In this document: positions 29,859-63,810 of the stretch, in pieces | How positions within the stretch are numbered: position 1 is the stretch's first letter | Layout: every line of letters starts with the position of its first letter | NCBI GenBank assembly: GCA_963811105.1 | Contig: CAWEPZ010000011.1 | Span: 576,001 to 640,000 of the forward strand | Direction of reading: 5' to 3' | From: Candidatus Bathyarchaeota archaeon | GTDB lineage: Archaea > Thermoproteota > Bathyarchaeia > Bathyarchaeales > Bathycorpusculaceae | Length of the DNA stretch: 64,000 nt | The notes under the pieces: model-generated | Seen by the model: the letters and a program-made list of their open reading frames with translations, nothing else | Database searches by the model: none | Told to the model about the DNA's origin: nothing | Translations under genes and position numbers: made by a program

Positions 29859-32060
<2,202 letters not shown>

Positions 32061-34771: not shown

Positions 34772-34811
34772 GTCAACATTTCTTGACTGACCCAAGTCAA
34801 GTTTTCTTGAC
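34772..34811. repeat. Class-A double-box site (perfect)
   Basis: GTCAA catttc TTGAC tgacccaa GTCAA gttttc TTGAC. Confidence 0.85.
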
Positions 34812-43795: not shown

Positions 43796-43811
43796 ATCAA
43801 AGTTTCTTGAC
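43796..43811. repeat. Single class-A box overlapping a stop codon (left end of array)
   Basis: ATCAA agtttc TTGAC encodes VKKL* of the 43797 gene. Confidence 0.75.
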
Positions 43812-44570
43812 TTGAGATGTTCGGTGCGCTTTGAGATGAACAAAGAAAACAACTATAACAAATAAGGTTGCAGCCACTGTGCTTGCAAAGATTAGGATGA
43901 TAGTGGCGGTAGTTGAAGTAGAAGTTTTAGTTAAAGGAACTTGGTTAATGGTTGGTTGTGGAATATAGTTGTTAGGCTCTTTTGGGATTGTCGCTTGAGG
44001 AATTGAATTTGATGTGTAATTTGCGTTTGTAGGCAATGGTTGGGTATCAGGCGTATTTTTTGGTTCTACTGTGAAATCAACAGTGTCTGTCCATATGGCT
44101 TGATAATCTAAGCTTCCTGGACTTACAGGTTTAAAGGCTCCGTTTGGAGGGTTAGGACCGTTTTGATGTACGTCAACCTGAAGAGTTACTACTACTTGAT
44201 GAGGACCTGCGGATAACTCGGGGATATTTACTGATCCTATCGCTTCGTAAACAACGTGTAACTCATTGTTTGGATTGTTAACTGTCCAAGGTATAGACCC
44301 TTCGTCGTTTCCATCTAGGGTATATGTTAGGGTGTACTTCAGGCCCCCAACGGGAAAAGTTACGTTCAGCGTTAACAGATTTGAATCGTAGGTTTCGGAT
44401 CTGGGAAAAGTAATTTGAACTACTTTATAGGGCTGTGTAGTAGAAGCGTGGGCGGGCACAATTGTTTGAGTCCAGAACGCTAACGATATAAGAAATAGTA
44501 AAGGGATTAAAAGAGTGCAGAGTATTTTTTTGTTCGATCTTCCTTGTACTTTTCGCATTAACATCAACAA
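43797..44570 (-). CDS. Secreted Ig-like-domain protein with TM anchor
   Basis: Signal peptide, ITFP..TY, YTLDG, LSAGPH.V.V, C-terminal TM. Confidence 0.75.
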   Translation of the reverse strand: MLMLMRKVQGRSNKKILCTLLIPLLFLISLAFWTQTIVPAHASTTQPYKVVQITFPRSETYDSNLLTLNVTFPVGGLKYTLTYTLDGNDEGSIPWTVNNPNNELHVVYEAIGSVNIPELSAGPHQVVVTLQVDVHQNGPNPPNGAFKPVSPGSLDYQAIWTDTVDFTVEPKNTPDTQPLPTNANYTSNSIPQATIPKEPNNYIPQPTINQVPLTKTSTSTTATIILIFASTVAATLFVIVVFFVHLKAHRTSQVKKL

Positions 44571-44597
44571 GTTGCTAAAGGTGAAGGTCCAATATTA

Positions 44598-44656
44598 CTC
44601 TCCCCCGGGAACAGTCTGTTCCGCTAAAAGAACGCTTAGTTAGTAAGTTTCTTGAC
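44598..44656. repeat. Class-B site plus degenerate class-A box overlapping a stop
   Basis: CTCTCC-N5-GAACA gtc TGTTC cgctaaaa GAAC; then TAGTA agtttc TTGAC encoding SQETY*. Confidence 0.75.
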
Positions 44657-45950
44657 TGGTATCAATGATGTCTAACCAATGTAACAACCGAGAAATTATT
44701 AGAATAAAGGGCAGAATTACTAACCAAGATAATTCTGGAACGGTAGGAGTTGAAGCTGTCGACGTTTGATCTGATGCTATTGGAGCGTTGCTGTCTGCGT
44801 TGAAGTTTATTGTTTGCTCAAATGTTGGGACAGAAGGAGTATTTGCCTCGGATTTAACAGAAATAGTCAGTTTATGAGAACCGTTTGACAGCCCAGTTAG
44901 TGTTATATTGCCATTGAGGGACTTCCAATCAGAAGCTTCAGGTTCACCGGTTGTATCCAAAGCATAATATGACCAAGTAACCTTTGAATCGACGCTATAA
45001 ATTATTGGCACTTGATTAATATTGTAGGTTGCTTGGTTTTGTGGTGAGATAATAGTAAATACTCCGGGTATTTGACCAGCCTGTGTTGGCAAGTTGATTG
45101 GTTGGCTAATTTGGTTGCTTACAGAAAAACGGGTTGCAAAATTTGATGTCATAATGTTGTCCCCGTAATCTGTCCATAGAACCAAAAATATCATCGTGTG
45201 ATTTCCAAGCGATTGAGTTGCTATTGTTCCAGTTAAAACTATGGTGGGATGGTTGGCTGTGTACACTGGAATATACGCCGGTGCGCTACCATTGATTACC
45301 ATTGGCCCATATGGACCCTTGGCTGAGTCTCTGCCTGCGATGGAGATAATGTTTCCTGTATTATCAAGTACATAGCTGACTGAGTATATTTCTCCGCGAA
45401 GTAGACTATTGGTAAACCAAGATGGTGGAATAGTTATGTTTATGGAGTAAGGAATAGGCTGATTTTCTGGAAAAACTTGGGGGTAAGTTGGAATATTAAC
45501 CTTTAGAATTGGAGCATCAGGGTTAAGGGTTGTTGGTCTGCCTACAGGAAACTCGACTCTTGCGCTTCCTTCATTTACCCAAGTTCCATAGTCGTATTTT
45601 ACATATACCATTATTACATGCCAACCATCCGAAAGATTCGGCAAAATTGCTTGGCTAGTAACTGATGAATATGAATAAGCACCTGAGGTGGAAATGCCTT
45701 GGTAGACTGGTGTCATGCTTACATTGGCTTGCCCGTCTACGCTATAAGTAATATATCGGTTCTCTGAACCTTTGAGAGGATCTAAAAACATTGAAGCTGA
45801 AATGTTGAGCAAAACAGGATTTATATTATTACCATAACTCTCAGGTGAAACAATAGTAACTTGCAGAGGACCAGGTTCAAAATTAGCCCATACGCCAACT
45901 ATATTGTATGCTCCCAGAAACATTGAACTGATAACTATTACGGCTAACAT
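44640..45950 (-). CDS. Secreted protein with repeated Ig-like domains and PEF-CTERM-like tail
   Basis: IVSP, YSVDG, LSDGWH/LSNGSH repeats; PTVPELSWLVILP. Confidence 0.75.
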   Translation of the reverse strand: MLAVIVISSMFLGAYNIVGVWANFEPGPLQVTIVSPESYGNNINPVLLNISASMFLDPLKGSENRYITYSVDGQANVSMTPVYQGISTSGAYSYSSVTSQAILPNLSDGWHVIMVYVKYDYGTWVNEGSARVEFPVGRPTTLNPDAPILKVNIPTYPQVFPENQPIPYSINITIPPSWFTNSLLRGEIYSVSYVLDNTGNIISIAGRDSAKGPYGPMVINGSAPAYIPVYTANHPTIVLTGTIATQSLGNHTMIFLVLWTDYGDNIMTSNFATRFSVSNQISQPINLPTQAGQIPGVFTIISPQNQATYNINQVPIIYSVDSKVTWSYYALDTTGEPEASDWKSLNGNITLTGLSNGSHKLTISVKSEANTPSVPTFEQTINFNADSNAPIASDQTSTASTPTVPELSWLVILPFILIISRLLHWLDIIDTSQETY

Positions 45951-46015
45951 TTTTGCATTAATAGTTAACCACCACTATTTTTTCCAATGCTTTGTTGTGG
46001 TTAAAAAGCTTATTC

Positions 46016-46055
46016 GTAAAATTTTCTTGACTATGGTTAGTCAAAGTTTCTTGAC
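46016..46055. repeat. Class-A double-box site
   Basis: GTAAA attttc TTGAC tatggtta GTCAA agtttc TTGAC. Confidence 0.85.
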
Positions 46056-46128
46056 GCAGTTTACTTGGTGGTTTTTCGATGCCTTCTAAGTAGAAGTAAA
46101 GAAGCAACTGCATTTTAAAGGATAAGGC

Positions 46129-47817
46129 CTACTTCACACTTCTTTCCTTGCTTAAAAACACAAACGCAAAAGCAACTACAACCACAACGATAACACTCAT
46201 CAGCACCAAGATGGCAATTTGAACCCAATCTAAACCCAGAAAAACTGCGTGTTGATACCCAGACTGAGTGAATTCGATTGATATTTGATGAGTGCTGTGG
46301 TGATAGCTAAAAGACACGAGCCAAGAATCTCCTTGGGACTGGGTAGTGTAAACTAATTGATTTCCGTCAAGGTAAACCTTGAGATTAGAAGCGTCACTGA
46401 TAAGTGATTTGGGAATATGCACATTAATGTATCCTGTTGTGTCTGAGGAACCGCTGACTGTAAAACTTAATTCTTTGCTTGTGGAGTTGAAGAAAATTTC
46501 TGAAAGAGTGGAATTTGATATTACGGAGAAAGCCAAGTCTTTTTCGTAAGGTGTCACAGCAAAGTTGACTGTAGTGCTTGTTTGAGGATATTGGTCATTT
46601 CCGAGCCATTCAGCTTTGAGCAAGTAATTTCCTGTGACTGTTGGCATCCAAACCGCCAAAAAATCTCCATTGCTATCTGTGTTCAATAGAGTAAGGTCTA
46701 TCCAAGAGTTGCCGCCGTTAACGCTGTAAGATAACTGGATTGATGCGAACGGTACACCTTGTCCATCAGCAATTAAACTACCATTGATGTCTACTTTGAA
46801 GTTCGAAAGTGTTGCAGAGCTTTGGCAAGAAACAATGAGGGTAGGCGTAGAAGGATTTAGATAGGATTGATTTGAACCGACGGTTATGGTGTATGCGGCT
46901 TGCCCTTGGGAAGTCATAACATCTACTATTAGTGGATCTCCTGGACTGACGTTTAGGGGTCCTGTACCATTAATGTTCAATTCTGTCCCGAAGCCTGCTA
47001 AAACTATTTCATGATCTGACCAACTTGTCAAATAAATGCCGATCATGTCCTTGGGCACCCATTGTGAATCCGTGCACCCCGCCTCCCAACTGTTAAAGCC
47101 TGCTTCATCGTATATTCTTATGACCGGAGTGGTTCCCCCGACAACGGTGTCGACGGATCCATCGCTTAGATTCATAAGTTGAGGCGAAATATTCCCAAAA
47201 CCATCGCCACTTATTATTATTGTTTGTATCCGAGTAGCTGCAATGTGGCTAATTGAAGATATTTCTGGTGTTGCTCCGGATGATCCAGGCAGATTTTGGC
47301 CTGTTGAACCAACAACATCTGTGTAAATTGCTTGTCCATTGGTAGTTTGCACTGCTATCAGCATTGGATCGCCTAAAGATAGGGTCCATTGTCCAGTACC
47401 GTTTATGCTTAGTGCCGTTCCAAAGCCGCCTAAGACAATGTCCGTGTCTGACCAACTCACTAATATGACGCCAATACTATCCGCACCCGTATTTGGAGTA
47501 TCTTGTACACCTGCTTCCCAACTGCTCGAACCGCCTTCATCATAAAACCTTATGACTGGAGTAGTGCCTCCACCGACAGTATCTACAGATCCGTCCCCCA
47601 GATTGAAGAGTTGAGGTTGAATTTTGCCGAAACCGCTACCGTGAATAAATATGGTCTGTATTCTGGTTGCTTCAATCGTGCTTACCGAGGAAATTTTTGG
47701 TGTACCGCTTTGAGACCCCACAAAATCTGCAGTACCGAAAGAAGCCAAGCCGCTAACCATAAAAGCTATCAAGAAAATGCATAGGAATGACTTCTCCATA
47801 GCTATAACCACAATCAA
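46129..47817 (-). CDS. Secreted protein: two tandem IPT/TIG-like repeats + shared Ig/C-terminal module + TM
   Basis: Duplicated P.ISS...ATRIQTI.I.G.GFG...GSVDTV.GGTTPVIR.YDE...SWSD..IVL.GFGT. Confidence 0.75.
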   Translation of the reverse strand: MIVVIAMEKSFLCIFLIAFMVSGLASFGTADFVGSQSGTPKISSVSTIEATRIQTIFIHGSGFGKIQPQLFNLGDGSVDTVGGGTTPVIRFYDEGGSSSWEAGVQDTPNTGADSIGVILVSWSDTDIVLGGFGTALSINGTGQWTLSLGDPMLIAVQTTNGQAIYTDVVGSTGQNLPGSSGATPEISSISHIAATRIQTIIISGDGFGNISPQLMNLSDGSVDTVVGGTTPVIRIYDEAGFNSWEAGCTDSQWVPKDMIGIYLTSWSDHEIVLAGFGTELNINGTGPLNVSPGDPLIVDVMTSQGQAAYTITVGSNQSYLNPSTPTLIVSCQSSATLSNFKVDINGSLIADGQGVPFASIQLSYSVNGGNSWIDLTLLNTDSNGDFLAVWMPTVTGNYLLKAEWLGNDQYPQTSTTVNFAVTPYEKDLAFSVISNSTLSEIFFNSTSKELSFTVSGSSDTTGYINVHIPKSLISDASNLKVYLDGNQLVYTTQSQGDSWLVSFSYHHSTHQISIEFTQSGYQHAVFLGLDWVQIAILVLMSVIVVVVVAFAFVFLSKERSVK

Positions 47818-47847
47818 AACAAATGTATTATCGATAAAAGCATTCTC

Positions 47848-47887
47848 ATCAAATATTCTTGACTAATATTAGTCAAATTTTCTTGAC
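47848..47887. repeat. Class-A double-box site
   Basis: ATCAA atattc TTGAC taatatta GTCAA attttc TTGAC, 12 bp from the stop at 47900. Confidence 0.85.
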
Positions 47888-47899
47888 TGGTTTTTTGTG

Positions 47900-48895
47900 T
47901 CAAACATTTCCTTGTAGTCTCTTTCTAACCGTAATCAGAGCAATTGGAATGGAGAGTAGTAAGGGTAGGATTGTCAACCAAGAAAACTCTGGAATTGTGG
48001 GGGAAGATGGTAAGGTATAGTTATAGGGTTTAATCAGAGGATATCTGTCGATTACTTGTGGAGCGGCCTCGCTAACATACGTAATATTGCCTATACCTGA
48101 ATAGCTTATTTCAACTGCTTGAGGATATCTTCTTGCATAGTCATTCCAGTAGTTGCCTTCAACTCCATTGTCCCAGGGTTTAGTATTAGCAGATTTTGGA
48201 AAGAGCAGAGTTCCAAATGTGAGTACCTCAACGTTGAGGAAATTGTTGTGGTAAACTTGAAATTCGCTAGTTTGTGTACTGATAAAGAAGGTTGTGAGTC
48301 TGCTAAAAGTTATGTTATTAGATTCAATTTTTAGTGCTGTACAATTAGTTATCCAAAAGCCAGTTGCATAATCACCTAGCACTATTTGATTTTGAGATAT
48401 TGTATTGTTGTTTCCTACTATCCGTTCTGGGCCAATTTGATTTCCTATTATTTTGTAATTACTGGCGTATACTGCAACATCATAAATATTATTGGAAAAG
48501 TAGTTGGACTGAATTGTATTGTTATCAGAAGCTCCTATTACTCCTAAACTCCAGTTAAAGATGTGAAAATTGAAAATAGTGACATTGGTACAAGCCAAGT
48601 ATATGGCAGCCATATTGTAAGTTTCCCTTCCAGGTCCTTGAAGGTTAAGACCAGAACCGTTTAGAATAATGTTGTTACGTTGAATTGTGATATTGCAGTT
48701 TTGAATGTTATCAGTTAAGGTATAGATGCTTCCATTATGTTGAATAGGTGCTGTTGAAGGCTCAATGGTTCCATCTGACGTTATGTAAATGGGAGAAACA
48801 TCAGAAGGATTCAAAGAATTAGCTCTAGATACATCTAACCTCAAAGCTGACAAAACTACAAAAAGAATCAGCAAAGAAACTAACGCTTTCTTCAT
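47900..48895 (-). CDS. NosD/CASH right-handed beta-helix protein with PEF-CTERM-like tail
   Basis: IYITSDG.I.P.TAPI...G.IYTLT, NNTI repeats, WDNGVEGNYWNDY, DRYPL, IPEFSWL+TM+RKR. Confidence 0.8.
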   Translation of the reverse strand: MKKALVSLLILFVVLSALRLDVSRANSLNPSDVSPIYITSDGTIEPSTAPIQHNGSIYTLTDNIQNCNITIQRNNIILNGSGLNLQGPGRETYNMAAIYLACTNVTIFNFHIFNWSLGVIGASDNNTIQSNYFSNNIYDVAVYASNYKIIGNQIGPERIVGNNNTISQNQIVLGDYATGFWITNCTALKIESNNITFSRLTTFFISTQTSEFQVYHNNFLNVEVLTFGTLLFPKSANTKPWDNGVEGNYWNDYARRYPQAVEISYSGIGNITYVSEAAPQVIDRYPLIKPYNYTLPSSPTIPEFSWLTILPLLLSIPIALITVRKRLQGNV

Positions 48896-49551
48896 CTTAT
48901 TCGATGCCTTCTATAGATAGTAAGAGCAACAACCCCAATGGAAGGGGCAGCTATAACTAATGATAATATGGTGAAGAATTCAGCGTCTTTAGGTAACAAT
49001 TCACCATCAGGCTTCTCTGTTATATTGGAATTTTGAGAAATAGTGAAATTAACTGAAGCTTTGTCTAAACTCTGAATGCTTCTTATCCGTGGGTTAAGAC
49101 TGTCTGGCTTAACATCTAATCGTAAGAAATGAGTTCCTTCTGAAATATTATGCAGAGTTGTAGTGTAGTTTAGCCACGTGTTGCTATACCAGCATGGATT
49201 TACAAGAGAACAAAAAGCCTCATGTCCGCCAACTGAAACAAGAGTCATATTTTGGCGGTCAGAACCATCTAAACTATAAATACAACTGATATTTTGGTAA
49301 GGAACATAATGCGTATTTGGCTCAGACTCAATTCCTCCTATATGCAAACCTGCGTTTACAACAATATCAGAATCTGTATACGTGAAGTTTTCAATCGGTG
49401 AGGTTATAGCTATTTGACCAGAAAGTTCATCATAATTAAAAGGAATTGCAGCGTTTGGCGAATAGCAGGAACCAAAATTTAACGCTAGAACTGGAAAAAT
49501 AAATCCGACAAGAAACAAAAGTAATATTTTCTTATCCACAATCATCATCAA
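48892..49551 (-). CDS. Secreted Ig-like-domain protein with TM anchor
   Basis: IAITSP.EN.TY, YSLDG, ISEGTH; overlaps the downstream gene by 4 nt. Confidence 0.75.
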   Translation of the reverse strand: MMMIVDKKILLLFLVGFIFPVLALNFGSCYSPNAAIPFNYDELSGQIAITSPIENFTYTDSDIVVNAGLHIGGIESEPNTHYVPYQNISCIYSLDGSDRQNMTLVSVGGHEAFCSLVNPCWYSNTWLNYTTTLHNISEGTHFLRLDVKPDSLNPRIRSIQSLDKASVNFTISQNSNITEKPDGELLPKDAEFFTILSLVIAAPSIGVVALTIYRRHRIR

Positions 49552-49579
49552 TATTATTCAGGTATTTTCTTGGTTATAA

Positions 49580-49637
49580 CTCTCCTGAAAGAACAAGGTG
49601 TTCCGCTAAAAGAACGGTTAGTCAAAAGTTTGTTGAC
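49580..49637. repeat. Class-B site plus class-A box
   Basis: CTCTCC-N5-GAACA agg TGTTC cgctaaaa GAAC ggtta GTCAA aagtttg TTGAC; stop of the next gene at 49642. Confidence 0.8.
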
Positions 49638-49641
49638 CTGA

Positions 49642-50364
49642 TTATTTTGGCGTTTTTCGATGGCTTCTAAACAGCAGTAAAGCACCAATAACAATCGCCA
49701 AGATTGCAGCGGTTACAATCGCTAAAATATAGGATGCAGGAAAATCAGCTCTATCGTTAATATTTGAATTACTTGCAGTCGCAGAAGATTGAATCGGTTG
49801 AATTGTTGGAGATGGTTCTAATGTTGAAGGAATTGTGTTTACTGTAAAGTTAGTTTTTTCAGAATAAGTATCAATGTAGTAATTCATTTCGATGTTCCAA
49901 GTTCGACTATCATTTTTATCGTAATAACTATTGTAATAACTATCGGAGTGAATGCGTATTTGGAAGCTATGATTTCCTTCAGATAGATTAGTTAAGTCTC
50001 CTTGATAGCTGAAGGGTTCTTTTCCGTATTTTAAATAATCAGCGTAATTGGAAATTGCAACTTCATTGTTGTTGTCGAGTTTGTATAAGATTACCATTAT
50101 TTGACCGTGAACTGGGTCATAGTCAAACCATGATGAAGGTTTTCTTATAGTTAATGAATAATGGATTGTGTCGACATCATAGGTCTTATTATTTATTGGT
50201 TCGCTAATGGTTATCGTTGGCTCATTCTTATCGGGTGTTGTGGGTAGCGGTGCTTGAGGAGAAGGATTTCCAACTGCTAACTCCACTATCGCCATACTAA
50301 TTATGGCTGACATTAGAAAGACTAATGCAACCGCCAAAGGTGTTCTTTTCACAAAGACAACCAA
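49642..50364 (-). CDS. Secreted Ig-like-domain protein with TM anchor
   Basis: PTITISEP.NNKTY, YKLDN, LSEGNHS, TM+RSHRK. Confidence 0.75.
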   Translation of the reverse strand: MVVFVKRTPLAVALVFLMSAIISMAIVELAVGNPSPQAPLPTTPDKNEPTITISEPINNKTYDVDTIHYSLTIRKPSSWFDYDPVHGQIMVILYKLDNNNEVAISNYADYLKYGKEPFSYQGDLTNLSEGNHSFQIRIHSDSYYNSYYDKNDSRTWNIEMNYYIDTYSEKTNFTVNTIPSTLEPSPTIQPIQSSATASNSNINDRADFPASYILAIVTAAILAIVIGALLLFRSHRKTPK

Positions 50365-50401
50365 GTTATTACTGCGTTGAATTTGCTATTTACGTTTTTT
50401 C

Positions 50402-50480
50402 GTCAAAGATTCTTGACTGGGGTTCGTCAAACTTTCTTGACTAAACGCAAACTGTCGGTTAAGTCAAAGTTTTTCTTGAA
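50402..50480. repeat. Class-A double-box site (perfect) plus a third degenerate box
   Basis: GTCAA agattc TTGAC tggggttc GTCAA actttc TTGAC (50402-50441); GTCAA agtttttc TTGAA (50463-50480). Confidence 0.85.
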
Positions 50481-50530
50481 TAGTTTAAGATTAGATTTCT
50501 GGTACGCAGTAAATTCATAATTGAAGTTCA

Positions 50531-51680: not shown

Positions 51681-51737
51681 TTTTCATAGCCTCTTCTAAC
51701 AAAGTTATTTGCAATCGATTTTCTTAAAAGGTTTTCA

Positions 51738-51777
51738 GTAAAACAATCTTGACTGGGTTTAGTCAAAGTTTCTTTAT
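51738..51777. repeat. Class-A double-box site with an adjacent 3' gene remnant
   Basis: GTAAA acaatc TTGAC tgggttta GTCAA agtttc TTTAT; minus strand ILLFRKRK* (51774-51800) stops inside the box. Confidence 0.8.
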
Positions 51778-51802
51778 TTGCGCTTTCTAAACAGCAAAAT
51801 AT

Positions 51803-52084
51803 TACCGAGTTAGCAGATTAGTCTTGTTACTCGACTATCAGGGAATCGGCGTTAGCAAAAGGCTCCTAAACTTTATTGCTGAACTTTACTCTTATCAAAC
51901 TATAATGCCCTTCTATATTCTGTCGAGCAATCCTCAAATTATCCATAGAAACCTTGGTAATTGGAAAATAATGAGTTCTGGTCATGCAAGCAAAGGAAAG
52001 AATGACTCTAGAATAAACAATAGATTGCATTGCAGTTTAAACCGAAGACGAATAACCGTTTCGATGCGATACAAAGAAAAGTAA
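51803..52084 (+). pseudogene. GNAT-like acetyltransferase C-terminal fragment
   Basis: YRVSRLVLLLDYQGIGVSKRLL acetyl-CoA motif A, no N-terminus. Confidence 0.5.
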
Positions 52085-55538: not shown

Positions 55539-58193
55539 TTATGGTCGTTTTTTTAGTAATAATGCGCCGACTATAGCTATTGCAATTATGATGGCAATTA
55601 CTCCTAAGACCATGTAAGTCATTAGGTCTGATGTCGTAGCAGCGTTTATTGGAGCAGAGGTTGCTGTCGGAGTTGCCTGAGGTGCGTTGACTACTAATGC
55701 TGCTGCTTGAGCATAAGAACTTCCGTATGAATCATCGCCTGCAAAGGTAGCGGTTATCTTGTATGAGCCTGCAACGGTTGGAGCCCAGACGTAGCTGAAT
55801 GTTCCGCTCATGTCGCTGGTAACTGTTGCAATGTGGACAAGGTTGTTGTTGGGGTCAACTGCGTCGATTGAAACTGGTACACCTGTAACATTAGCTGGCA
55901 CTTGATACTGAGCATGCAGGTGATCCATCCATGCGCTCATCGATTGTGCTGAAACGCATGCTGTGCCTGGCTGCCCTGGTGATTGGTCTAAGACTGTGCC
56001 TGATATTATCGCGCTTTCACCTGTGGTGATTTGTGTTTGTGGCACTGAAACTGTGGTTGCGCTTTGTCCTTTGCCGAACACATACATTGTCGCATCATAT
56101 TCGCTTCCGAATACTAGATAGCCTTCCGCAATAGCGCCTGTGAATGCTCTGGACTGGTCAACTTGAGAGGCTGAGTAGTTCCATATTTGCTCGCCTGTGG
56201 TCATGTTGACACAGTATAGGTTTAAGCCTCTTGTCAATGGTTCACTGGGTGTGTGTTCTGCAGATGAAACGTAGAGTTTTCCGTCAGCAATCTGAACACC
56301 AACGTGAAATGCGTATTCTGTGCCGTTCATGTCAGTTTGGTATGGAGTTTCAAACTCGTATGGTGTATATGCATGGAAGTGCCATTCAATATTGCCATTG
56401 GCTTCGTTAATGCCATAGACACCATCATAAGCACCGCTGATGTAGATGCCGTAGCCTGTTGCAACATGGTATGCGCCGAATTCACCCCATGGATAAGACA
56501 GCTGAGTACTCCACTTAAGTTTTCCAGTGTTCAAGTCCCAAGCCATTATATCGCCTTCAAGCCCTCTGGCAATGAATACTCCGTTGTCAGCAACGCATTC
56601 AACAGTGCTGAAAAATGATTCGCTACCGTCACCCTTTTGTAGAGTTGTCACATTCCACAACACCTGTCCAGTTGTGAGACTAATACCTGTCATGAATTGT
56701 CCGATTGTAACTCCAGTGCCGCTTACACCCGATGGGTTTATTGAACCAACGTAGACCGCTACACCTGTAGTAAAGTCAGTTGTGGTTGGCAATGAACTAA
56801 TCGGCCATGTTATGTTTCCTGCAATTCTTTGCTGTAAGGTATTAGCGGTAGTTACGGTTGTACCAGTTGACACTTGGACCCCAGCATCGTTTGTTGTCCA
56901 GTTGATTAATCTGTATCTGTTTGCGCCTGCTGCCGCACCTAGATCCTGAACACTTAATTCGTATTCGTCCGAATAGTATGTACCAGTCGTTAATGGAGCG
57001 ATTGAAGCGTTAATAAGGGTAGAACCGGTGAATGGGTCATATTTGAGCAGTCTTTGGCTGCCAACATATACTAGTGTTACGCCTAAGCCTCGCATCATGG
57101 CTTCTTCGCCAGCTACTGCTTGAGAAGCTCTTTTTGTGTAGCTAACGAATGTTGGTGCTTGAGTTACACTGAAGTTTGCAGAATTTGTTTTATCCCAGTA
57201 TATCTGACCTGTGCGTAAGTCATAGCATTCCCAAACGTCTTGTGTTATACCGTTTACTACTTTTGTAAGTGTTTGATAGCATCTTCCGTTGTAGATTATT
57301 TGTGGATAGAGCCAACTACCTGCTGTTGGACTTGGGGTAGCGTCTGGTCTAGCTGTGATGTCTCCGAGTTGTCCGCCGATTAAGCCGCCAACGCCGACTA
57401 CTCTTGACCATAGAATGTGTGCAGTGTTAGGCGCTTGAACGTATGGTACGAAATTGCTTGTTGCACTCCAGGTTTTTGAAGTGTTTGGATATAGTGAATC
57501 CCATGTGATTCCTTGGGTATAGCTTGGGTCAACTGGTGAATAGCCAGTTGGTGGGTAGCATCCAAGTATGGTCCACCATTCCCTGTTGTTAGGCGACACT
57601 GGTCTGGTCCAGTAGTCGGTTGGCAATGGTGTCGGTGGCCATGAAGCTACTAGGTCTTGTTGGACGACCATTTTTAGTGGTGGTGAAGATGAGGGGCTGT
57701 AGTAGGCTGAATTTAGGTTCTGTCCTGAAGAGTTAGTAACAATGTAACCGCTAAAGTATTGTGCTGCTGGAAAGTACTCGCCTATGAAGTTGAATTGTAC
57801 GGTGTAGTTGCCTACCTGGTCTGGCACATAAGTTGTCCATGCTGTTGCGTCGCCGGCGTATGATGATAGAGACAATTTGTCTTGGGATCCGTCTGGCTTG
57901 GTGATAACGATCTGATAGGAACCTATGTATTGTCTGTTGATGTTGATTGGAGGCTGAGTCCACATGTTTATCAGCAGTGGCTGGTTTACGCCTATCGGGT
58001 TGGGTGAAACGCTCAGGTATGAAACGGTTGAGATTGTGATGCTTGGGGTAACACCTGATGGCAGTGCTCCAGCGGTTGGTTGGGTTGCGGCAAGTTGAGC
58101 TTTAGTAGGTGCAGCAATCATTGCAATTGACGAAATCATTAGTATTGCTAAGAATATCGCTAATATTTGCTCTTTATGTGTAGAATAATTCAT
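55539..58193 (-). CDS. Secreted PQQ-like beta-propeller protein (paralog 5)
   Basis: Same motif set; AGGAG RBS; TTTTATAA box ~58242-58250. Confidence 0.8.
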   Translation of the reverse strand: MNYSTHKEQILAIFLAILMISSIAMIAAPTKAQLAATQPTAGALPSGVTPSITISTVSYLSVSPNPIGVNQPLLINMWTQPPININRQYIGSYQIVITKPDGSQDKLSLSSYAGDATAWTTYVPDQVGNYTVQFNFIGEYFPAAQYFSGYIVTNSSGQNLNSAYYSPSSSPPLKMVVQQDLVASWPPTPLPTDYWTRPVSPNNREWWTILGCYPPTGYSPVDPSYTQGITWDSLYPNTSKTWSATSNFVPYVQAPNTAHILWSRVVGVGGLIGGQLGDITARPDATPSPTAGSWLYPQIIYNGRCYQTLTKVVNGITQDVWECYDLRTGQIYWDKTNSANFSVTQAPTFVSYTKRASQAVAGEEAMMRGLGVTLVYVGSQRLLKYDPFTGSTLINASIAPLTTGTYYSDEYELSVQDLGAAAGANRYRLINWTTNDAGVQVSTGTTVTTANTLQQRIAGNITWPISSLPTTTDFTTGVAVYVGSINPSGVSGTGVTIGQFMTGISLTTGQVLWNVTTLQKGDGSESFFSTVECVADNGVFIARGLEGDIMAWDLNTGKLKWSTQLSYPWGEFGAYHVATGYGIYISGAYDGVYGINEANGNIEWHFHAYTPYEFETPYQTDMNGTEYAFHVGVQIADGKLYVSSAEHTPSEPLTRGLNLYCVNMTTGEQIWNYSASQVDQSRAFTGAIAEGYLVFGSEYDATMYVFGKGQSATTVSVPQTQITTGESAIISGTVLDQSPGQPGTACVSAQSMSAWMDHLHAQYQVPANVTGVPVSIDAVDPNNNLVHIATVTSDMSGTFSYVWAPTVAGSYKITATFAGDDSYGSSYAQAAALVVNAPQATPTATSAPINAATTSDLMTYMVLGVIAIIIAIAIVGALLLKKRP

Positions 58194-58310
58194 TTTTGTT
58201 CTTCTCCTAAATTTTTATGAACAATCCCTTCGTGCGATTAGTTATAAAACTTTCGAATAATTTTCATTACGCACAGAAAATTGGCAAGTCGACAGGTTTG
58301 GGTATGCAAG

Positions 58311-58391
58311 CAAAGGGAGAGATAATACAAGAATAAACTCAGAAATAAGAAGCAGTCTTAGCCGGAAACGAATAACTGTTTCTATGCAATA
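58311..58391. repeat. ~80-bp direct repeat, copy 2
   Basis: See 55258-55336. Confidence 0.7.
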
Positions 58392-58508
58392 TTTAGAACA
58401 ATAAACAACATCTTTTCTCAAGCCTTTGTATAAATTAAGCCCTCAAATTCACGGTAGCCATGCACACTGAACCAAAATGTTAAGCGCGTGCCAAAGCGAA
58501 AATTGTAC

Positions 58509-59921
58509 TTAGTTTATTTCTTTTTGTTTCTTGTTTAAACCTAGCGAGTATTTTGCTGCAACTACCAGTATAGTGCCAAATATGGCTACTATTACGATTA
58601 GTATTATTTCGCTTCCTGGTTGTTGGGTTCCTTTGAGTTCTGTTGCGGGTGCATTTGCGTCTATGTGCATGCTTATTTGATGGGTGCTGTGCGAATAATT
58701 GAATGTGAATACCCAAGAATCATCTGTTGAAGTTACTGTGTAATTGAGTTGTTTTCCGTCAATGTATGCTTGTAAGCCGTTACCGTTTGGAAGTAAACTC
58801 TTGGCTATTGTAGCTTTAACGAAACCTGTCGTTCCAGATGGACCTGTTACGTTAAAACTCAAAGTGGCTGTCTCATTGTTGAAAGCCAAAGCGTTAACGG
58901 TGCTGTTTGATTCGATAACCAAAGTATTTTTGTTTTCAATGGGCAAGAAGTTTAAAGTGGTAGTATTGCTTGCGTAAGTGTTTGTTGAGTCTCCGCTCCA
59001 CTCCGTCTTAAGTGTGAATGAGCCTGAGGCACTGTTTATCCACTGGATATTGTACGTGCCTTCGTCGTTTGTTAGTCCCGAACTTATGGGTATCCAAGTT
59101 TTTGCTCCTGGAAAAGTGTAGGATAAGACAACTGTTTTATTCTGCAATGGAACCCTGCTAGAATCCGATAACGTACCGAAAATGTTTACTGCTGAACCAG
59201 CGGTTGTTGACAAAGACTCGGTGGAGATTGAAAGGATTGCAGGGTTATTAAAAGGGTCTTGGATGTTTCGGAATGAATAGTCAGCTGGTGAATTGCCCCA
59301 TACGCCTAATCCTATGTATTTAATGTCTTCGAATGTGAAATTGGCTATTTCGGACGTTGAAAGTGACCCTATTGATGTGCCATTTTCGTCAAGTACAGTT
59401 GTTGTGATAGCAAAAGGAGATGATGCAACACTTAATTTCATCGTGTACCAAACGTGCGGTTCTCCGAAAGCAACTTCGCTTGCCATCCAGTCGCTCCAAT
59501 TCCTCGCCAACTGAAAAACGCTCTCACCATAGTATCCATATTCAAAGTTAAATCCAAGAGTACTTCCTGCAATCGGCAGGCTGCTTCTAACGAATACTCC
59601 ACAGCTTTCAGGCGTCTCAGCGTTCACTTGAAAAGAAAACGTGAAATCACTGCTAGGTTTAATTTCCTTATAAAAAGATATTGCAGGACTAACACTACCG
59701 CCGTTGCTCCATAACCTCAAAGTACCGTTTGATTCAGCATAGTAGCCGCCTTTGTCTTCAACTTGCCACCCTACAAGCGAGGTTGGGGCTGCCTGACTCT
59801 CGCAGCGGCTTAGTTGACTAAACGTCAAGACCAAAAGGCTGATTAGGAGCAACATGGGGATTAGCTTTTTCCACACAGACACTCGACCTTTAATGAGGCT
59901 AACAAGATTGTCACTTGTCAC
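58509..59921 (-). CDS. Secreted protein: lectin/concanavalin-like N-domain + shared Ig/C-terminal module + TM (true start probably ~59876)
   Basis: WYTMKL.V beta-sandwich; IESNSTVNALAFN...LSFNVTGPSGTTGF...YSHSTH. Confidence 0.7.
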   Translation of the reverse strand: MTSDNLVSLIKGRVSVWKKLIPMLLLISLLVLTFSQLSRCESQAAPTSLVGWQVEDKGGYYAESNGTLRLWSNGGSVSPAISFYKEIKPSSDFTFSFQVNAETPESCGVFVRSSLPIAGSTLGFNFEYGYYGESVFQLARNWSDWMASEVAFGEPHVWYTMKLSVASSPFAITTTVLDENGTSIGSLSTSEIANFTFEDIKYIGLGVWGNSPADYSFRNIQDPFNNPAILSISTESLSTTAGSAVNIFGTLSDSSRVPLQNKTVVLSYTFPGAKTWIPISSGLTNDEGTYNIQWINSASGSFTLKTEWSGDSTNTYASNTTTLNFLPIENKNTLVIESNSTVNALAFNNETATLSFNVTGPSGTTGFVKATIAKSLLPNGNGLQAYIDGKQLNYTVTSTDDSWVFTFNYSHSTHQISMHIDANAPATELKGTQQPGSEIILIVIVAIFGTILVVAAKYSLGLNKKQKEIN

Positions 59922-59961
59922 TTAAAATATGAAGATTTGTTTTAAAGATAAAAGAGTTTTC

Positions 59962-60019
59962 GTCAACATTATTTGACTAACAGTTTCTTTTTAGCGTTTT
60001 TTAGTCAAGAAACTTTGAC
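59962..60019. repeat. Rearranged class-A/B junction: two boxes, one inverted
   Basis: GTCAA cattat TTGAC-N26-GTCAA gaaact TTGAC; reverse complement of 59962-59996 resembles 49604-49637. Confidence 0.8.
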
Positions 60020-60119
60020 TAAAATCAAAGCAAGAGTCCACGCTACTTTAGCCCAGAAAAGGTAGTTCGGTTCTATTGCTTTCCAATTTGCCTTAATCCA
60101 CCCTTTTATTAGTTGAACA

Positions 60120-61319
60120 TCATTTTTTATACCTAAGTATCACCGCAACAGAGAGCATTATGACAAACAATGATAGAATTGTCAACCAAGAAAACTCAGG
60201 AACAGAAGGAGATGGGGTTGGACTAGGAGAAGGGCTGTTATTGGGGTTGCTGTTTGGTGTTGGGGAAGAGGTAGAATAAGGTAATGCTGTTGATGAATAA
60301 GTAAGATAGTTTTCAATGTTAACAGGATTAAGCAATGGAAAATTATCTTGGTTGAACTCATTTATTGTATAGGGTATACTTCCAATGCCATTGCTTCCAG
60401 TTCCTCTGTATTTATCCCAATGATTACCTTCCTTGCCATCATCCCAATAATTGATTGATTTTACGACTCTGATCAGGTCATAGTATGAAGAATCATTTGA
60501 GATATCCTTTGAATTAAAAAGAAAATTATTGTGATGCAGTACATTCTTTGTGCTTCCAACAAAATGAGTAGCGTCAGTATTGTAAGCTATGTAGTTTCCC
60601 ACTACATAGTTTTGGCTTGTAAAGTAGTAAAACAAGCCTGTGTACGCTGAAGTTATTTTGTTAGCTGAAACAACAGTGTTGTTTACATTTCTATCTGAGA
60701 AGCGTAAACCTACATGGCTAGAACTGATATCATTATTTCTAATCAGGTTATGAGTAGAAAATCCAGTGATATCAATCCCATAGTAATTGTCCCAAATAGT
60801 ATTTGCTTCAATCAAATTATTACTGGAAGAATGCACCCAAATGCCATTGCCACTATTTTCTATCTTATTACCGGTGATATTGCAGTTTTGAGACTGTTCT
60901 AGTTGTATAGCAACAAGTTCTTTATCAAAAATGATGGCACTAACGGTTGGTTGTTTGGTATTAGTGGCAACTAGAGTTAATGCTGAAATGGCAACTTGAC
61001 TATGGTTTACCATTAACATAAATGGATTTGATTGACCAGTAATAATGGTTGACTCCTTATCCTCACCTGTAAGTGAGATTGCTTTGTCAATTATGATGTT
61101 GCTTTCTTGATAGGTGCCTTTCTTTACATAAACTGTATCTCCGTCATCTGCATGACTTACAGCATCTTTGATAGTGGAATAATCAGCTGGCACAACTATT
61201 GTTTCAGGTTCTAAAACGGTAGTTCCTGATTCTGCCTCTGATATTTGGATTAATGGTACAACTATCAAACTAAGAAATAGCAAAATAATTGCTAAGACTA
61301 CAGCTTTATTGGTTCTCAT
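60120..61319 (-). CDS. NosD/CASH beta-helix protein with PEF-CTERM-like tail
   Basis: IVVPADYSTIKDAV..A..GDTVYVKKGTY, NN.I repeats, WDDGKEGNHW, VPEFSWL+TM. Confidence 0.85.
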   Translation of the reverse strand: MRTNKAVVLAIILLFLSLIVVPLIQISEAESGTTVLEPETIVVPADYSTIKDAVSHADDGDTVYVKKGTYQESNIIIDKAISLTGEDKESTIITGQSNPFMLMVNHSQVAISALTLVATNTKQPTVSAIIFDKELVAIQLEQSQNCNITGNKIENSGNGIWVHSSSNNLIEANTIWDNYYGIDITGFSTHNLIRNNDISSSHVGLRFSDRNVNNTVVSANKITSAYTGLFYYFTSQNYVVGNYIAYNTDATHFVGSTKNVLHHNNFLFNSKDISNDSSYYDLIRVVKSINYWDDGKEGNHWDKYRGTGSNGIGSIPYTINEFNQDNFPLLNPVNIENYLTYSSTALPYSTSSPTPNSNPNNSPSPSPTPSPSVPEFSWLTILSLFVIMLSVAVILRYKK

Positions 61320-61363
61320 TTTTCCAAATCTACTGCTGTTTGACTATCCCTAAAAGGCTTTCA

Positions 61364-61403
61364 GTAAAATAATCTTGATTGTGATTAGTCAAACTTTCTT
61401 GAC
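61364..61403. repeat. Class-A double-box site
   Basis: GTAAA ataatc TTGAT tgtgatta GTCAA actttc TTGAC. Confidence 0.85.
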
Positions 61404-61500
61404 TACGCAAATTTGCGTTTGTGTTGTTTTTCAACTCTCATTTTTTCAGTCAACAAAAGCCAGTCTGAACCATTCTATTCCTTTTTGCTTCATTATGCGA

Positions 61501-62709
61501 TCAGAGCCTCTTTACAGAATTTTTGCGTCTCACAACAATAAGAATCGCCGCTCCTGCCACGACACCTAATGCGGTTGCAGCTACTATTTCTAAAGTTGCA
61601 GTCGGTGTTGCATTGGACGTTTCAGCTGCTTGAGCTGTCGTTGAAGATGACATTGATGAGGGTGCAGTTCGATTGAGTGATATGTCTTCAACGGGTTTGT
61701 ATTGCCAAATGTTTGAGCAGTAGAAACTGGAGCCGTCAGTGTAGCCCCCTATTGCGTACAAAGCATCACCAACAGCTGCAACGCCAAGAGCGTTTCTGTT
61801 ATCAATCATCGGAGTACCCATTGTCCAAGAGTCGTTTTGGGGAAAATAGACTTGGTTGAAATCTGTGCCCGATTGGTTGCCGTATCGTTGCTTCTGAGTG
61901 CCGCCTCCCAGTACGTGAATTGCGCTTGTGTTAGACGTTGTTAAGGTAACCGCTGCTGAGTTCTCGACTGAGTTTGGAATAGGTGCTGCGGTGGTCCAAG
62001 TGTCGGTCTGAGGGTCATACACTTGAACTATGTTGGTGATGTCTCCATTCTGCATGACTCCTGAAAATACGTATATTTTGTTGTCTACTGCTGCGGATGC
62101 GTATGACGCGACTGGATAGGGCATAGGTGCCAACTCTTTCCACGAGTCTACTGCAGGGTCATAGGCCTGGTTTTCCCCTGAAATCATGTAGGAGAGTTGA
62201 CCAGGTAAAGCTTTAGGCGAGTTATCCTTGGTCATTGTTCTTCCGCCAATCAAGTAGATTTCTCCGTCAACCACGTTTGCTGTTAAGAACCATCTTTGGG
62301 TAGGCATGGGAGTTTTCGCCATCCAAGAATCCGATGTTGAGTCATAGACGTTGTTTGCTGGTCCTCCGATACAGTAGATTATGTCTTGGTAAGCAGCGAT
62401 GCCGAAGCTGTTGAGCCAGTTTGGTCCAGGCATCGGCGTTTTCTCAACCCAAGTGTCAGTGGCTGGATTGTAGGCTTCGTTTGTGTTGGTGGTTCCTGTG
62501 CGATTGTTATGATATCTGTCCTGTACTGCTGTTAGCCCGCCAATTGCGTAAATCGTGCCATTGGCTGTCACGGCACCAAACATGTATCTTGCCGTGGGCA
62601 TAGGCGACTTTTCAACCCATGAAAGGGCTTGAGCGTCGGAGGGATGAATGGCAAAACAGCTTACTGTTATGATGATGAGCGCAAACACGAACACAAATAC
62701 CTTGGCCAT
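61501..62709 (-). CDS. Secreted Kelch-repeat protein with TM anchor
   Basis: Six repeats PMPT.R ... IY.IGG ... YDP..DTW. Confidence 0.9.
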   Translation of the reverse strand: MAKVFVFVFALIIITVSCFAIHPSDAQALSWVEKSPMPTARYMFGAVTANGTIYAIGGLTAVQDRYHNNRTGTTNTNEAYNPATDTWVEKTPMPGPNWLNSFGIAAYQDIIYCIGGPANNVYDSTSDSWMAKTPMPTQRWFLTANVVDGEIYLIGGRTMTKDNSPKALPGQLSYMISGENQAYDPAVDSWKELAPMPYPVASYASAAVDNKIYVFSGVMQNGDITNIVQVYDPQTDTWTTAAPIPNSVENSAAVTLTTSNTSAIHVLGGGTQKQRYGNQSGTDFNQVYFPQNDSWTMGTPMIDNRNALGVAAVGDALYAIGGYTDGSSFYCSNIWQYKPVEDISLNRTAPSSMSSSTTAQAAETSNATPTATLEIVAATALGVVAGAAILIVVRRKNSVKRL

Positions 62710-62747
62710 ATTCTGTCATCAAACTGTATTCGCAAGGTTCCTATTAG

Positions 62748-62783
62748 CTCTCCTTGAAGAACAGGCTGTTCCGCTGAAAGAAC
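62748..62783. repeat. Class-B site
   Basis: CTCTCC-N5-GAACA ggc TGTTC cgctgaaa GAAC. Confidence 0.8.
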
Positions 62784-62820
62784 ACTGCGTTAACCCAAGT
62801 TCTCATCTTACCTTTTAGTG

Positions 62821-63025
62821 CTAAACATTTCCTTGTAGTCTCTTCCTAACGATAATTAGAACAAATAGGATAGCGAGTAGTAAGGGTAGAATTGTCAACC
62901 AAGAAAACTCTGGAACAGTTCGAGTGGGTGTTGGTGATATACTTTGATTTGGAGTTGGTAAAGTTATGATTGCTTTCTTTGGGTCATGATTGTATGGTTT
63001 CATTAATGGGTAGTTGTCGATGTTT
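62821..63025 (-). pseudogene. 3' remnant of a NosD/PEF-CTERM gene
   Basis: NIDNYPLMKPY...VPEFSWLTILPLLL...VRKRLQGNV, closely similar to the tail of 47900-48895. Confidence 0.75.
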
Positions 63026-63097
63026 CGTTATTAATAATTTAGACGGGTAGGTTTTAAAATGCAGTTGCTCTCTAACAATTGATTAGAGGCTAACAAG

Positions 63098-63787
63098 CTG
63101 GTTAGGCTAAAGCAACTTTGGAAGAACGATTACTTCAAAACAATATTCGCCATTGTCTTGGTTGTTACGTTAGTTCTTGTTTTCTTCTTCGGCTTAAAAT
63201 TAGCGTTTAATGTTTCCTATGGACCAATAGTTGTAGTTGAAAGCGGTAGCATGTGCGTTCCTTACGGCACAGGATGTGCCGGCTGGAACAGCATCACACA
63301 CCCGTTTGACCACACCCTGCACAAAGGCGATATCGTAATTATTCAAGGGGTAAATCCTAAAGATCTGAAAACGGGCTATCCCAACAGCGATGTGATCGTT
63401 TTTTACGACCCAAATGATCATACCGCCACTCCGATCATACATCGCATTATTTCGGTAACAGATGTCAACGGCACACTGTATTTTATAACTAAAGGGGATG
63501 GAAATGGCAGTCCTTCAGCAAAATGGCCGGCTCCTGTAACATCAATTGACGGCTTGGACCAATGGGATTACCTAAATAATCCACCCGGAGTTCCGCAAAA
63601 CGATGTTGTTGGCAGGGTTGTTATGCGGATTCCATGGTTTGGATGGGTAGCATTGATTATGCAGCAGAGTTCATGGGGTTTGCCATTAATAATGGGGTTA
63701 ATAGTACTGCTGATAGTTGTGGAATTTATAATTCCGATGTTTAGAGGGAACAAGAAAAAGACCGAAAACAAAAGCTTTCTTGACTAA
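63098..63787 (+). CDS. sec11: Archaeal signal peptidase I (Sec11-type, S26B)
   Basis: VVESGSM (Ser), GDIV, IIHR (His), TKGDGN, VVGRV..RIPWFG; upstream in-frame CTG at 63098 or TTG at 63158. Confidence 0.85.
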   Translation: MVRLKQLWKNDYFKTIFAIVLVVTLVLVFFFGLKLAFNVSYGPIVVVESGSMCVPYGTGCAGWNSITHPFDHTLHKGDIVIIQGVNPKDLKTGYPNSDVIVFYDPNDHTATPIIHRIISVTDVNGTLYFITKGDGNGSPSAKWPAPVTSIDGLDQWDYLNNPPGVPQNDVVGRVVMRIPWFGWVALIMQQSSWGLPLIMGLIVLLIVVEFIIPMFRGNKKKTENKSFLD

Positions 63788-63810
63788 GTTTTCGTCAAAC
63801 TTTTCTTTAC
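63769..63810. repeat. Degenerate class-A double site between convergent genes
   Basis: CAAAA gctttc TTGAC taagttttc GTCAA acttttc TTTAC; both neighbouring stop codons (63785-87 +, 63784-86 -) lie inside. Confidence 0.7.

Follow-up and report, generated by a model that had tools for sequence, protein, structure and literature searches.

Introduction

Individual genes are flanked by short inverted repeats in pdif modules and in the attC cassettes of integrons, and in the vsa, vsp, and vpma loci of Mycoplasma and the invertible promoters of Bacteroides, one active promoter or an invertible promoter segment is combined with an adjacent recombinase. Repetitive extragenic palindromes (REP) and bacterial interspersed mosaic elements (BIME), with which REP-associated tyrosine (RAYT) transposases are connected, are short intergenic palindromes that often lie just past stop codons and are possible recombination hot spots. 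Among archaeal regulators, Ptr2 uses paired upstream sites. TrmB and TrmBL1 of the Thermococcales recognize a palindromic motif, the TGM motif, and TrmBL1 of Pyrococcus activates when bound upstream of the TFB recognition element (BRE) and TATA box and represses when bound downstream (PMC4706686). Here, we describe a repeated double palindrome in 64,000 nucleotides (the window) of a Candidatus Bathyarchaeota archaeon (assembly GCA_963811105.1, contig CAWEPZ010000011.1, positions 576,001 to 640,000, that is, G000:C11:576001-640000, where G000 is the genome holding the window). The palindrome recurs in an array of surface-protein genes and was initially proposed to bound the cassettes of a recombination system. 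We consider it probable that it is a putative transcription-factor operator located just upstream of surface-protein promoters and that it defines a genus-wide regulon.

Bathyarchaeia are abundant, and to our knowledge, no transcription-factor regulon has been described for them. A small full-text search of the literature gave no description of this motif.

Sequence and anatomy of the double palindrome

In total, nine exact GTCAA-N6-TTGAC boxes occur in the window, compared with 0.13 expected from 100 shuffled sequences, none of which reached nine. The original prediction of a repeated 40-bp double palindrome, in which two boxes are separated by 8 bp, is borne out, with six copies at no more than three mismatches against 0.01 expected, one of them the outlying copy at 34772. 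The mismatches number zero at 34772 and 50402, one at 46016 and 47848, two at 61364, and three at 51738. The boxes at 59962 and 60004 are exact, and those at 43796 and 23965 have one mismatch to GTCAAGAAANNTTGAC. The degenerate boxes at 63769, 49621, 44641, and 50463 carry three to four or more mismatches or an altered spacer. The N6 spacer ends in TTC on the plus strand in seven of the nine exact boxes, as had been noted. Most junctions of the array had been said to carry a box; the listed sites are indeed present, some in degenerate form, but no box was found at four array junctions (54149-54303, 54682-55538, 58194-58508, and 62710-63037).

Because the genes are encoded on the minus strand, the left box of the prediction is the promoter-proximal one and the right box the distal one. 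Read on this gene strand, the site is TTA-GTCAAGAAAnYTTGAC-TAAnnnTA-GTCAAGAAnnTTTGAC, after which come a purine-rich stretch of 6 nt and a TATA-like CCTTTTA or GCTTTTA element, with the start codon of a signal-peptide-like protein about 30 nt past that element. The full form of a box is TTA-GTCAAGAAAnYTTGAC-TAA, and the arms of the distal box extend to TTAGTCAA and TTGACTAA. The centres of the GTCAA and TTGAC arms are 11 bp apart, which gives a dyad symmetry with a period of about one helical turn. Positions 1 to 9 and 12 to 16 of the box are nearly invariant, position 10 is free (G20, A13, T15, C15), and position 11 is T or C; therefore, the box is asymmetric.

An alignment that anchors the 14 units of 24-bp spacing carries information at no positions other than the two boxes with their TA/TAA flanks and the TATA region, and the flanks outside these parts are unconserved, which indicates that the boxes are held by selection and were not copied with recently duplicated junctions. 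By eye, the coding end SQETY-stop overlaps its own degenerate box in another frame than VKKL-stop does, and therefore the conservation is at the DNA level. Among 315 arm pairs, 37 have one-sided changes and none has compensatory changes, although the seeds were picked by consensus likeness, which biases the sample against doubly changed boxes. One-sided changes without compensation point to a protein that reads the sequence and speak against a hairpin.

Genome-wide units and their promoter register

The whole genome contains 33 exact arm-only boxes and 53 matches with at most one mismatch to the oriented 16-mer, and the latter form 43 oriented units at 41 places on seven contigs. Measured from start to start, two boxes are 24 bp apart in 14 units, 23 or 25 bp apart in 5, and 34 to 36 bp apart in 4, and the 24-bp and 34- to 36-bp classes differ by one helical turn; the other 20 units have a single box. 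A TATA-like pentamer starts 8 to 9 nt past the proximal box in 22 of the 43 units; the background is 3.0% at 40 to 120 nt upstream of open reading frames (ORFs), and random positions give 1.8%. A gap of 6 nt separates the end of the proximal box from the CCTTTTA or GCTTTTA element, and box orientation matches the downstream gene. At the divergent pair C12:36902/36990, for example, each promoter has one box that points to its own gene. This position, for the most part upstream of TATA-like elements across the genome, tells against the cassette-recombination reading, and the variable spacing, the single-box units, and the fixed distance to TATA are at odds with the proposal that the boxes are recombinase half-sites around an 8-bp core.

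Downstream ORFs of 100 aa or more number 30; the N terminus is hydrophobic in 24 of them (background, 20%) and both ends are hydrophobic in 20 (background, 10%). These ORFs are partly paralogous and not independent, so P values computed from them are too strong. Many of the boxed genes belong to paralogous families (Kelch, NosD-like, and PQQ), and boxes also stand upstream of non-homologous genes, namely, regulator genes and the gene of a 55-aa membrane protein. On the upstream side, the 43 units have a divergent gene in 12 cases, no ORF in 11, and a co-oriented ORF in 20, of which 10 are transmembrane (TM) tailed. On these counts, the boxes show no link to the 3' ends of upstream genes. The distal box had been placed at or inside the 3' end of a gene, which does not hold in general: the upstream stop lies inside the distal box in three of the 43 units (VKKL, VKKV, and VKKV, each followed by a stop), and at the double sites of the window, the stops lie 12 to 97 nt before the box. 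The coding ends VKKL, SQETY, and SLTKT, which the sites were said to encode, are present, but they do not represent a rule.

Distribution in relatives

Of 18 genomes of the genus, 17 have the exact oriented box, which was found in none of 12 genomes from other families of the order, and a reversed-pattern control gave no matches except one in G024. In single-contig relatives, the sites are hundreds of kilobases apart. The spacing classes of 24 to 25 and 32 to 36 bp are found again among the relatives. The order of box, TATA, ATG, and signal-peptide-like start was seen at 9 of 12 fetched loci of relatives, four of the nine having a single box. A set of 16 regions upstream of a paralog of a 311-aa regulator (see below), lined up by the distal box, retains TTAGTCAAGAAAGTTTGACTAAG and GCTTTTAC as well as the second box, and the flanks have diverged. 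The Kelch protein was rejected as a synteny anchor: its best-matching relatives share no more than 48% identity with it and it belongs to a multi-copy family, which leaves no usable orthologs.

Candidate regulators

Three boxed genes of G000 encode regulators, not surface proteins. The first product, of 311 aa, carries a Cys cluster at its N terminus and has two winged-helix regions, one of the TrmB/HTH_24 type; the second is a 157-aa Tfx-like helix-turn-helix protein encoded inside the array on contig C2; and the third is a 168-aa ArsR/DUF7347 protein. In the 311-aa family, one paralog evolves slowly and lacks boxes, and others evolve fast and have them; G000 has a boxed copy at C11:1147703-1148638 and a second paralog at C11:1225736-1226656. 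The fast-evolving paralogs are boxed in nine sampled genomes, and boxes lie 65 to 180 nt upstream of them in eight further named records; in four more records, the box is about 570 to 600 nt upstream of the paralog. In the tree of this family, the boxed rows need two changes, and the boxed paralogs may have a single origin. Searches of PDB and NCBIfam for a name for the 311-aa regulator gave weak winged-helix matches only. Between its boxed promoter and its gene lies a 30-aa ORF, MSKWFNLVSV... (L025:2636-2728, G000:C11), the stop of which overlaps the regulator's ATG (ATGA) and which resembles the N terminus of the 55-aa membrane protein encoded on contig C1.

In addition, a 428-aa protein (G000:C1:65342-66625) combines an N-terminal ArsR/DUF7347 winged helix (about residues 1 to 95), a TM segment (by eye), and a putative extracellular domain of about 300 aa. 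Its gene is divergent from the boxed promoter of a small two-TM protein (MSKW..., 55 to 86 aa), and in G010, G002, and G016, a paralog of the 311-aa regulator is next on the boxed side of this pair; in some genomes, the boxed promoter drives this paralog as well. Full-length relatives of the 428-aa protein were found in 14 of the 18 genus members and in no genome of the 12 from other families. The best candidates for the factor are the 311-aa Cys-cluster protein, which has a genus-specific paralog with the double box in its own promoter, and the 428-aa membrane-anchored winged-helix protein. A GTAAAG variant of the box was considered for co-evolution with a long-branch clade of the regulator, and its one to three copies per genome allow no inference.

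Proposed mechanism

We infer that each box would bind a dimeric DNA-binding regulator through arms of 5 to 8 bp placed one helical turn apart and that one or two boxes would stand directly upstream of the BRE/TATA of an archaeal promoter. The distance of about 30 nt from the TATA-like element to the start codon would fit short or absent leaders. The boxes would define a regulon of about 30 promoters in G000, mostly of secreted, C-terminally anchored beta-helix, Kelch, beta-propeller, and immunoglobulin (Ig)-like proteins, and the regulator would also control a regulator gene, that of the boxed 311-aa paralog. The dyad symmetry, copies at helical-turn distances, TATA register, gene orientation, dispersal, and footprint at a regulator gene together characterize an operator to which a dimeric regulator would bind. 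If the box is an operator, its position upstream of the BRE/TATA and not over it favors, by the TrmBL1 position rule, an activator bound co-operatively to two sites on one face of the DNA, an assignment that we lean towards without pressing it.

Several observations weigh against the operator reading. Spacer positions 6 to 9 (GAAA) are conserved as strongly as the arms, an unusual pattern if the site simply binds a homodimer and one that a recombination core would also display. Of the 41 distinct sites, about 10 (e.g., 43796, C2:219414, and C11:932151) have no recognizable TATA or downstream gene, and the TATA and signal-peptide calls rest on our own crude ORF caller and a hydropathy threshold. 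The 428-aa protein is not present in all box-bearing genomes, and no boxed regulator paralog was found in G003, G005, G007, G014, or G015, which have 5 to 14 exact boxes. The recognition helix of the C-terminal winged helix of the 311-aa family is conserved also in outgroup homologs from box-less genomes, and the comparison of recognition helices was therefore dropped as a discriminator.

Rearrangement in a sister species

The sister species G038, reached via locus L087, carries four blocks of the array in a 14-kb insert, 90 to 96% identical to G000 and in another order and orientation: [63038-63813][43797-46055][about 1.6 kb of other sequence][47828-50445][60022-58464, inverted]. Both G000 and G038 are metagenome assemblies. 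The flanks of the insert are syntenic with contig C9 of G000, and the insert adjoins a tRNA-like sequence recognized by eye, at which ARAGORN called no tRNA (L251). Five of the eight block ends (43797, 46055, 50445, 60022, and 63813) lie no more than 4 nt from a box edge of G000 (P = 3e-4 for at least five of eight, with ends placed at random in intergenic DNA). Of the others, 58464 lies in a box retained by G038 only, 47828 lies just past the TATA of site 47848, and 63038 has no box. Adjacent blocks overlap by 18 to 23 nt, which corresponds to one shared box, and one junction is an inversion at a box. Gene 46129..47817 is replaced in G038, between two sites, by a different pair of ORFs, one with an Ig-like domain. 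The outer box at 60004-60019 has its asymmetric spacer in the opposite orientation because this box is common to a divergently transcribed block in G038 (inverted junction J1). The G038 counterpart of the 43796 box is followed by segment 63790-63038 (junction J4), and the site 63769..63810 is a block end in G038.

The proposal of gene-order breakpoints at the sites between relatives thus agrees with the ends of these blocks, but other box loci of G038 differ in this respect. Two are collinear with G000 and unbroken, namely, the boxed regulator locus (8 kb, boxes included, 96.5% identity) and another one (7.3 kb, 95.7% identity); three arrays had no homolog in G000, and one break lay away from a box. 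The G000 arrays at C2:232-258 kb and C11:640-652 kb mostly have no counterpart in G038 and gave no further junctions; G039 was too distant for block analysis. The sole stretch of the C2 array with a match in G038 (G000:C2:235052-235976, L021:3053-3977; 96%) lies there on a different contig, and the ORF that overlaps it ends in ...HEGINYLTPAEIYLKDKV, by eye like the tail of a transposase or an integrase core.

Short Logan contigs (word share of no more than 0.34, placed at 90% likeness) have loose ends at 46055, 50441-50446, 60019, and 61395 and joints at boxes, e.g., from 50445 to 47869 with 21 letters between. These ends and joints fit other loci or organisms with box-spacer-box arrangements, and neither circles nor switched junctions were found in these contigs, which break at boxes.

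A sequence of 22 to 40 bp repeated ahead of many genes would provide a short-homology patch for ectopic recombination. From these alignments, we read the G038 arrangement as gene-plus-promoter modules that were probably moved, inverted, and replaced between the sister species at operator copies via short-repeat recombination. Modules of a gene and its promoter bounded by sites, as the original prediction had them, therefore do act as units of rearrangement in G038, but no recombinase is linked to them.

Alternative explanations

A dedicated site-specific recombination system would have the box, with its 8-bp arms and asymmetric 6-bp spacer, as the core site at which a recombinase encoded elsewhere in the genome cuts out, inverts, and inserts promoter-equipped surface-protein cassettes. 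The block ends at box edges, with one more in a G038-only box, the one-box overlaps, the inversion, and the gene replaced between two sites are in line with this, as are the conserved spacer positions 6 to 9 and the 16 PF00589 (tyrosine recombinase) matches in the genome, about seven of them full length. However, ordinary short-homology recombination predicts breakpoints in repeats equally, and the boxes keep a fixed distance to TATA, are oriented with the gene, vary in spacing or stand singly, and also occur at isolated genes and at the orthologous regulator promoters that stay syntenic. As a tyrosine-recombinase core, a single box offers arms and spacer of 8-6-8 at best; dif, loxP, and pdif-type sites have arms of about 11 to 13 bp around a 6- to 8-bp spacer. 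The gap between boxes is not constant (8 nt, 18 to 19 nt, or absent), and the spacers are not identical from site to site, since any base is allowed at position 10 and either T or C at position 11; the free position 10 would hinder strand exchange between most pairs of sites.

No PF00589 match was found in the window, as had been stated, or in the arrays, and there was no recombinase ORF in the G038 insert. The nearest match is a broken fragment by a tRNA-Pro gene, about 5 kb past the array's last listed box. The suggested clustering near a tyrosine recombinase did not appear, as 2 of the 16 matches lie within 5 kb of boxes, compared with a random mean of 1.1 (P = 0.32). Searches of the whole genome with PF00239 (serine recombinase) and PF01797 (Y1 transposase) gave no matches; in a control search, PF01797 was present in 6 of 14 reference genomes. 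The finding is not the cassette-recombination system first proposed, and a dedicated recombinase is improbable. We regard it as equally doubtful that the box is both an operator and a true site-specific core (8-6-8 with an asymmetric GAAAnY spacer) served in trans by a host recombinase. If it were, it would be an archaeal counterpart of pdif modules and integron cassettes in which each cassette carries its own regulated promoter, with excision, inversion, and exchange between arrays and islands.

The box could also be a core-promoter variant without a dedicated regulator, read by a paralog of transcription factor B (TFB) or the TATA-binding protein (TBP) or inherited with a promoter family through gene duplication. 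The fixed TATA register, the agreement with gene orientation, and the many paralogous targets are as expected from this, but dyad symmetry, copies at helical-turn distances, and the option of one or two boxes are typical of dimeric regulators. Moreover, boxes are kept where flanks and spacers are not, which speaks for selection on the boxes and against recent duplication, and boxes precede non-homologous genes, including those of regulators and the 55-aa membrane protein. We therefore consider this explanation unlikely. A hairpin of the upstream gene in RNA or DNA, as a 3'-end stabilizer, terminator, or REP-like palindrome, is very unlikely: the box is palindromic, follows a co-oriented gene in arrays, and contains a stop codon in three units, and a 53-nt RNA over one site folds at -8.4 kcal/mol (z = -2.4), but this fold is weak and pairs arms of different boxes, 23 of the 43 units have no co-oriented ORF ending within 300 nt upstream, the 315 arm pairs show no compensatory changes and 27 one-sided changes that break pairing, no Y1 (RAYT-type) transposase is encoded in the genome, and Rfam gave no match.

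Array genes and neighborhood

The coordinates of the sites and genes are collected in Table 1. The proteins of the array have hydrophobic N termini and C-terminal TM helices followed by basic tails. The description of the locus as a surface-protein array holds for co-oriented, TM-anchored genes with Ig-like, NosD, and Kelch domains, but the IPT and lectin domains also proposed had no Pfam match; the matches in the array are NosD/beta-helix, Kelch, a PQQ beta-propeller with Ig-like domains, and weak Ig. The proteins of 47900-48895, 60120-61319, and 44640-45950 end in (V/I)PE(F/L)SWL(T/V)ILP, a TM helix, and a basic tail. We take these tails to recall PEF-CTERM sorting signals; no NCBIfam PEF-CTERM model matches the array proteins at an E value of 0.1 or less, although PEFSWL is visible in several tails. 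Scans of the window for Rfam families and tRNAs gave no matches.

Table 1. Sites and genes of the window, with one conserved locus elsewhere. Positions count from the first nucleotide of the window unless a contig is given.
Feature	Position	Strand	Remarks
Single box, 1 mismatch	23965..23980	-	Upstream of gene 22788..23912 (BNR-like, hydrophobic N terminus)
Perfect double operator (putative)	34772..34811	-	Outside 43796-63810; upstream of gene 33170..34717 for a 515-aa secreted protein, which has no Pfam match
Orphan single box	43796..43811	-	Array end; encodes final VKKL-stop of gene 43797..44570; no promoter or gene after it
Array of 14 co-oriented genes, secreted proteins with C-terminal TM anchors (predicted)	43797..62709	-	From ORFs, hydrophobicity, and Pfam
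Array ORFs 1 to 7	43797-44570, 44640-45950, 46129-47817, 47900-48895, 48892-49551, 49642-50364, 50531-51190	-	
Array ORFs 8 to 14	51165-51680, 52382-54148, 54304-54681, 55539-58193, 58509-59921, 60120-61319, 61501-62709	-	
Second junction type	44598..44656	-	One degenerate box, then conserved leader GTTCTTTTAGCGGAACAGnCTGTTCC..GGAGAG; also at ~49580-49637, and at ~62748-62783 without a box
Double operator (putative)	46016..46055	-	Distal box 46040-46055, proximal box 46016-46031; upstream of gene 44640..45950; on the gene strand followed by GAATAA, then GCTTTTTAA (about 45999-46009)
Double operator (putative)	47848..47887	-	Upstream of gene 46129..47817; TATA-like GCTTTTATC at about 47832-47841; ORF start 30 nt past proximal box
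Double operator (putative)	50402..50441	-	Arms exact in both boxes; upstream of gene 49642..50364; degenerate third box beside it at about 50463
Degenerate double operator (putative; 3 mismatches)	51738..51777	-	Upstream of gene 51165..51680; CCTTTTAAG starts 6 nt past proximal box
Two boxes 26 nt apart	59962..60019	-	Upstream of gene 58509..59921
Double operator (putative)	61364..61403	-	Upstream of NosD/beta-helix gene 60120..61319; CCTTTTAGG starts 6 nt past proximal box; ATG 44 nt past box
Degenerate double site	63769..63810	-	17-nt distal-like box plus GTCAAGAAAGCTTTTG; overlaps SLTKT-stop end of gene leaving the window
Conserved divergent pair (428-aa gene and boxed small-protein promoter)	G000:C1:64996-66625 (L207:996-2629); G008:C9 (L208)		

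The leader of the second junction type is an element of about 45 nt, GTTCTTTTAGCGGAACAGnCTGTTCC..GGAGAG, that contains a GGAACAG/CTGTTCC inverted repeat and stands in for the proximal box and TATA at four junctions. The genome has four copies only (44598-44633, ~49580-49615, ~62748-62783, and G000:C2:663619), all in surface-protein arrays, and the element may be a second type of promoter or leader. Between the stop of 46129..47817 and the distal box, the minus strand at 46061-46111 still reads AVASLLLLRRHRKTTK followed by a stop, which as translated is a putative relic of a TM anchor and basic tail, and strings like GAAGGCATCGAAAAA stand ahead of the boxes at C2:219414, C2:233567, and C11:642542. 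Both kinds of strings look like traces of earlier gene replacement.

The region 28001-32000 has a GC content of 0.515, compared with about 0.41 in the rest of the window, and overlaps an ORF (29859..32036, 725 aa) with a Pfam peroxidase match (1e-72) that is catalase-peroxidase-like; this region may have been horizontally acquired. Genes for tRNA-His and tRNA-Leu (G000:C11:643375-643558) lie just past the box at C11:642542, and a tRNA-Pro gene (655614-655692) adjoins the broken integrase fragment C11:655875-656027. It is possible that the arrays occupy island-prone regions.

Comparison with known systems

The finding provides a precise cis-element, a list of about 30 target promoters, and two candidate regulators, one membrane anchored with a putative extracellular domain, and it makes the control of the cell surface in a soil and peat lineage of Bathyarchaeia approachable without culture. 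In the one sister-species comparison, the operator copies appear as the joints at which surface modules are reshuffled, so that the regulon would remain coherent while its membership turns over.

Like REP elements and BIMEs, the boxes are short palindromes that recur between genes, often close behind a stop codon, and that may serve as recombination hot spots. Unlike them, the boxes are accompanied by no Y1 transposase, number only in the tens, and keep a strict TATA register and the orientation of the downstream gene. The arrays resemble the phase-variable loci of Mycoplasma and Bacteroides in being surface-protein arrays with a conserved short site at each 5' end. However, every gene here is promoter-equipped and co-oriented, and there is neither an inverted-repeat pair flanking a promoter nor an adjacent recombinase.

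As with pdif modules and attC cassettes, short inverted repeats stand on either side of single genes, and relatives differ in gene order, the breakpoints falling at these repeats. In contrast to both, the genes carry promoters of their own at a fixed place relative to the site, spacing is variable, single-box forms occur, and sites in conserved contexts stay syntenic. The XerC/D-type 11-6-11 architecture of pdif is absent. With regard to integrons, the sites carry no attC signature (the RYYYAAC/GTTRRRY motif, correctly noted as missing, was looked for in the sequence), and neither an adjacent integrase nor attI nor a common promoter is present, each gene having its own TATA-like element. Among the defining features of dif- or pdif-type, attC, and REP systems, the breakpoints are the only one that clearly fits the boxes, and it does not discriminate between explanations.

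The closest likeness is to TrmB and TrmBL1, as a palindromic site would define a multi-gene regulon, lies just upstream of the BRE/TATA, and has candidate regulators with TrmB- or ArsR-type winged helices. The differences are another motif, an asymmetric conserved spacer, and two boxes at 24 or 34 to 35 bp; in addition, TrmB and TrmBL1 act in sugar metabolism, whereas the predicted targets here are secreted surface proteins in one genus of Bathyarchaeia. A regulon operator is an already known kind of element, and what is new is this motif and its target set in an uncultured genus.

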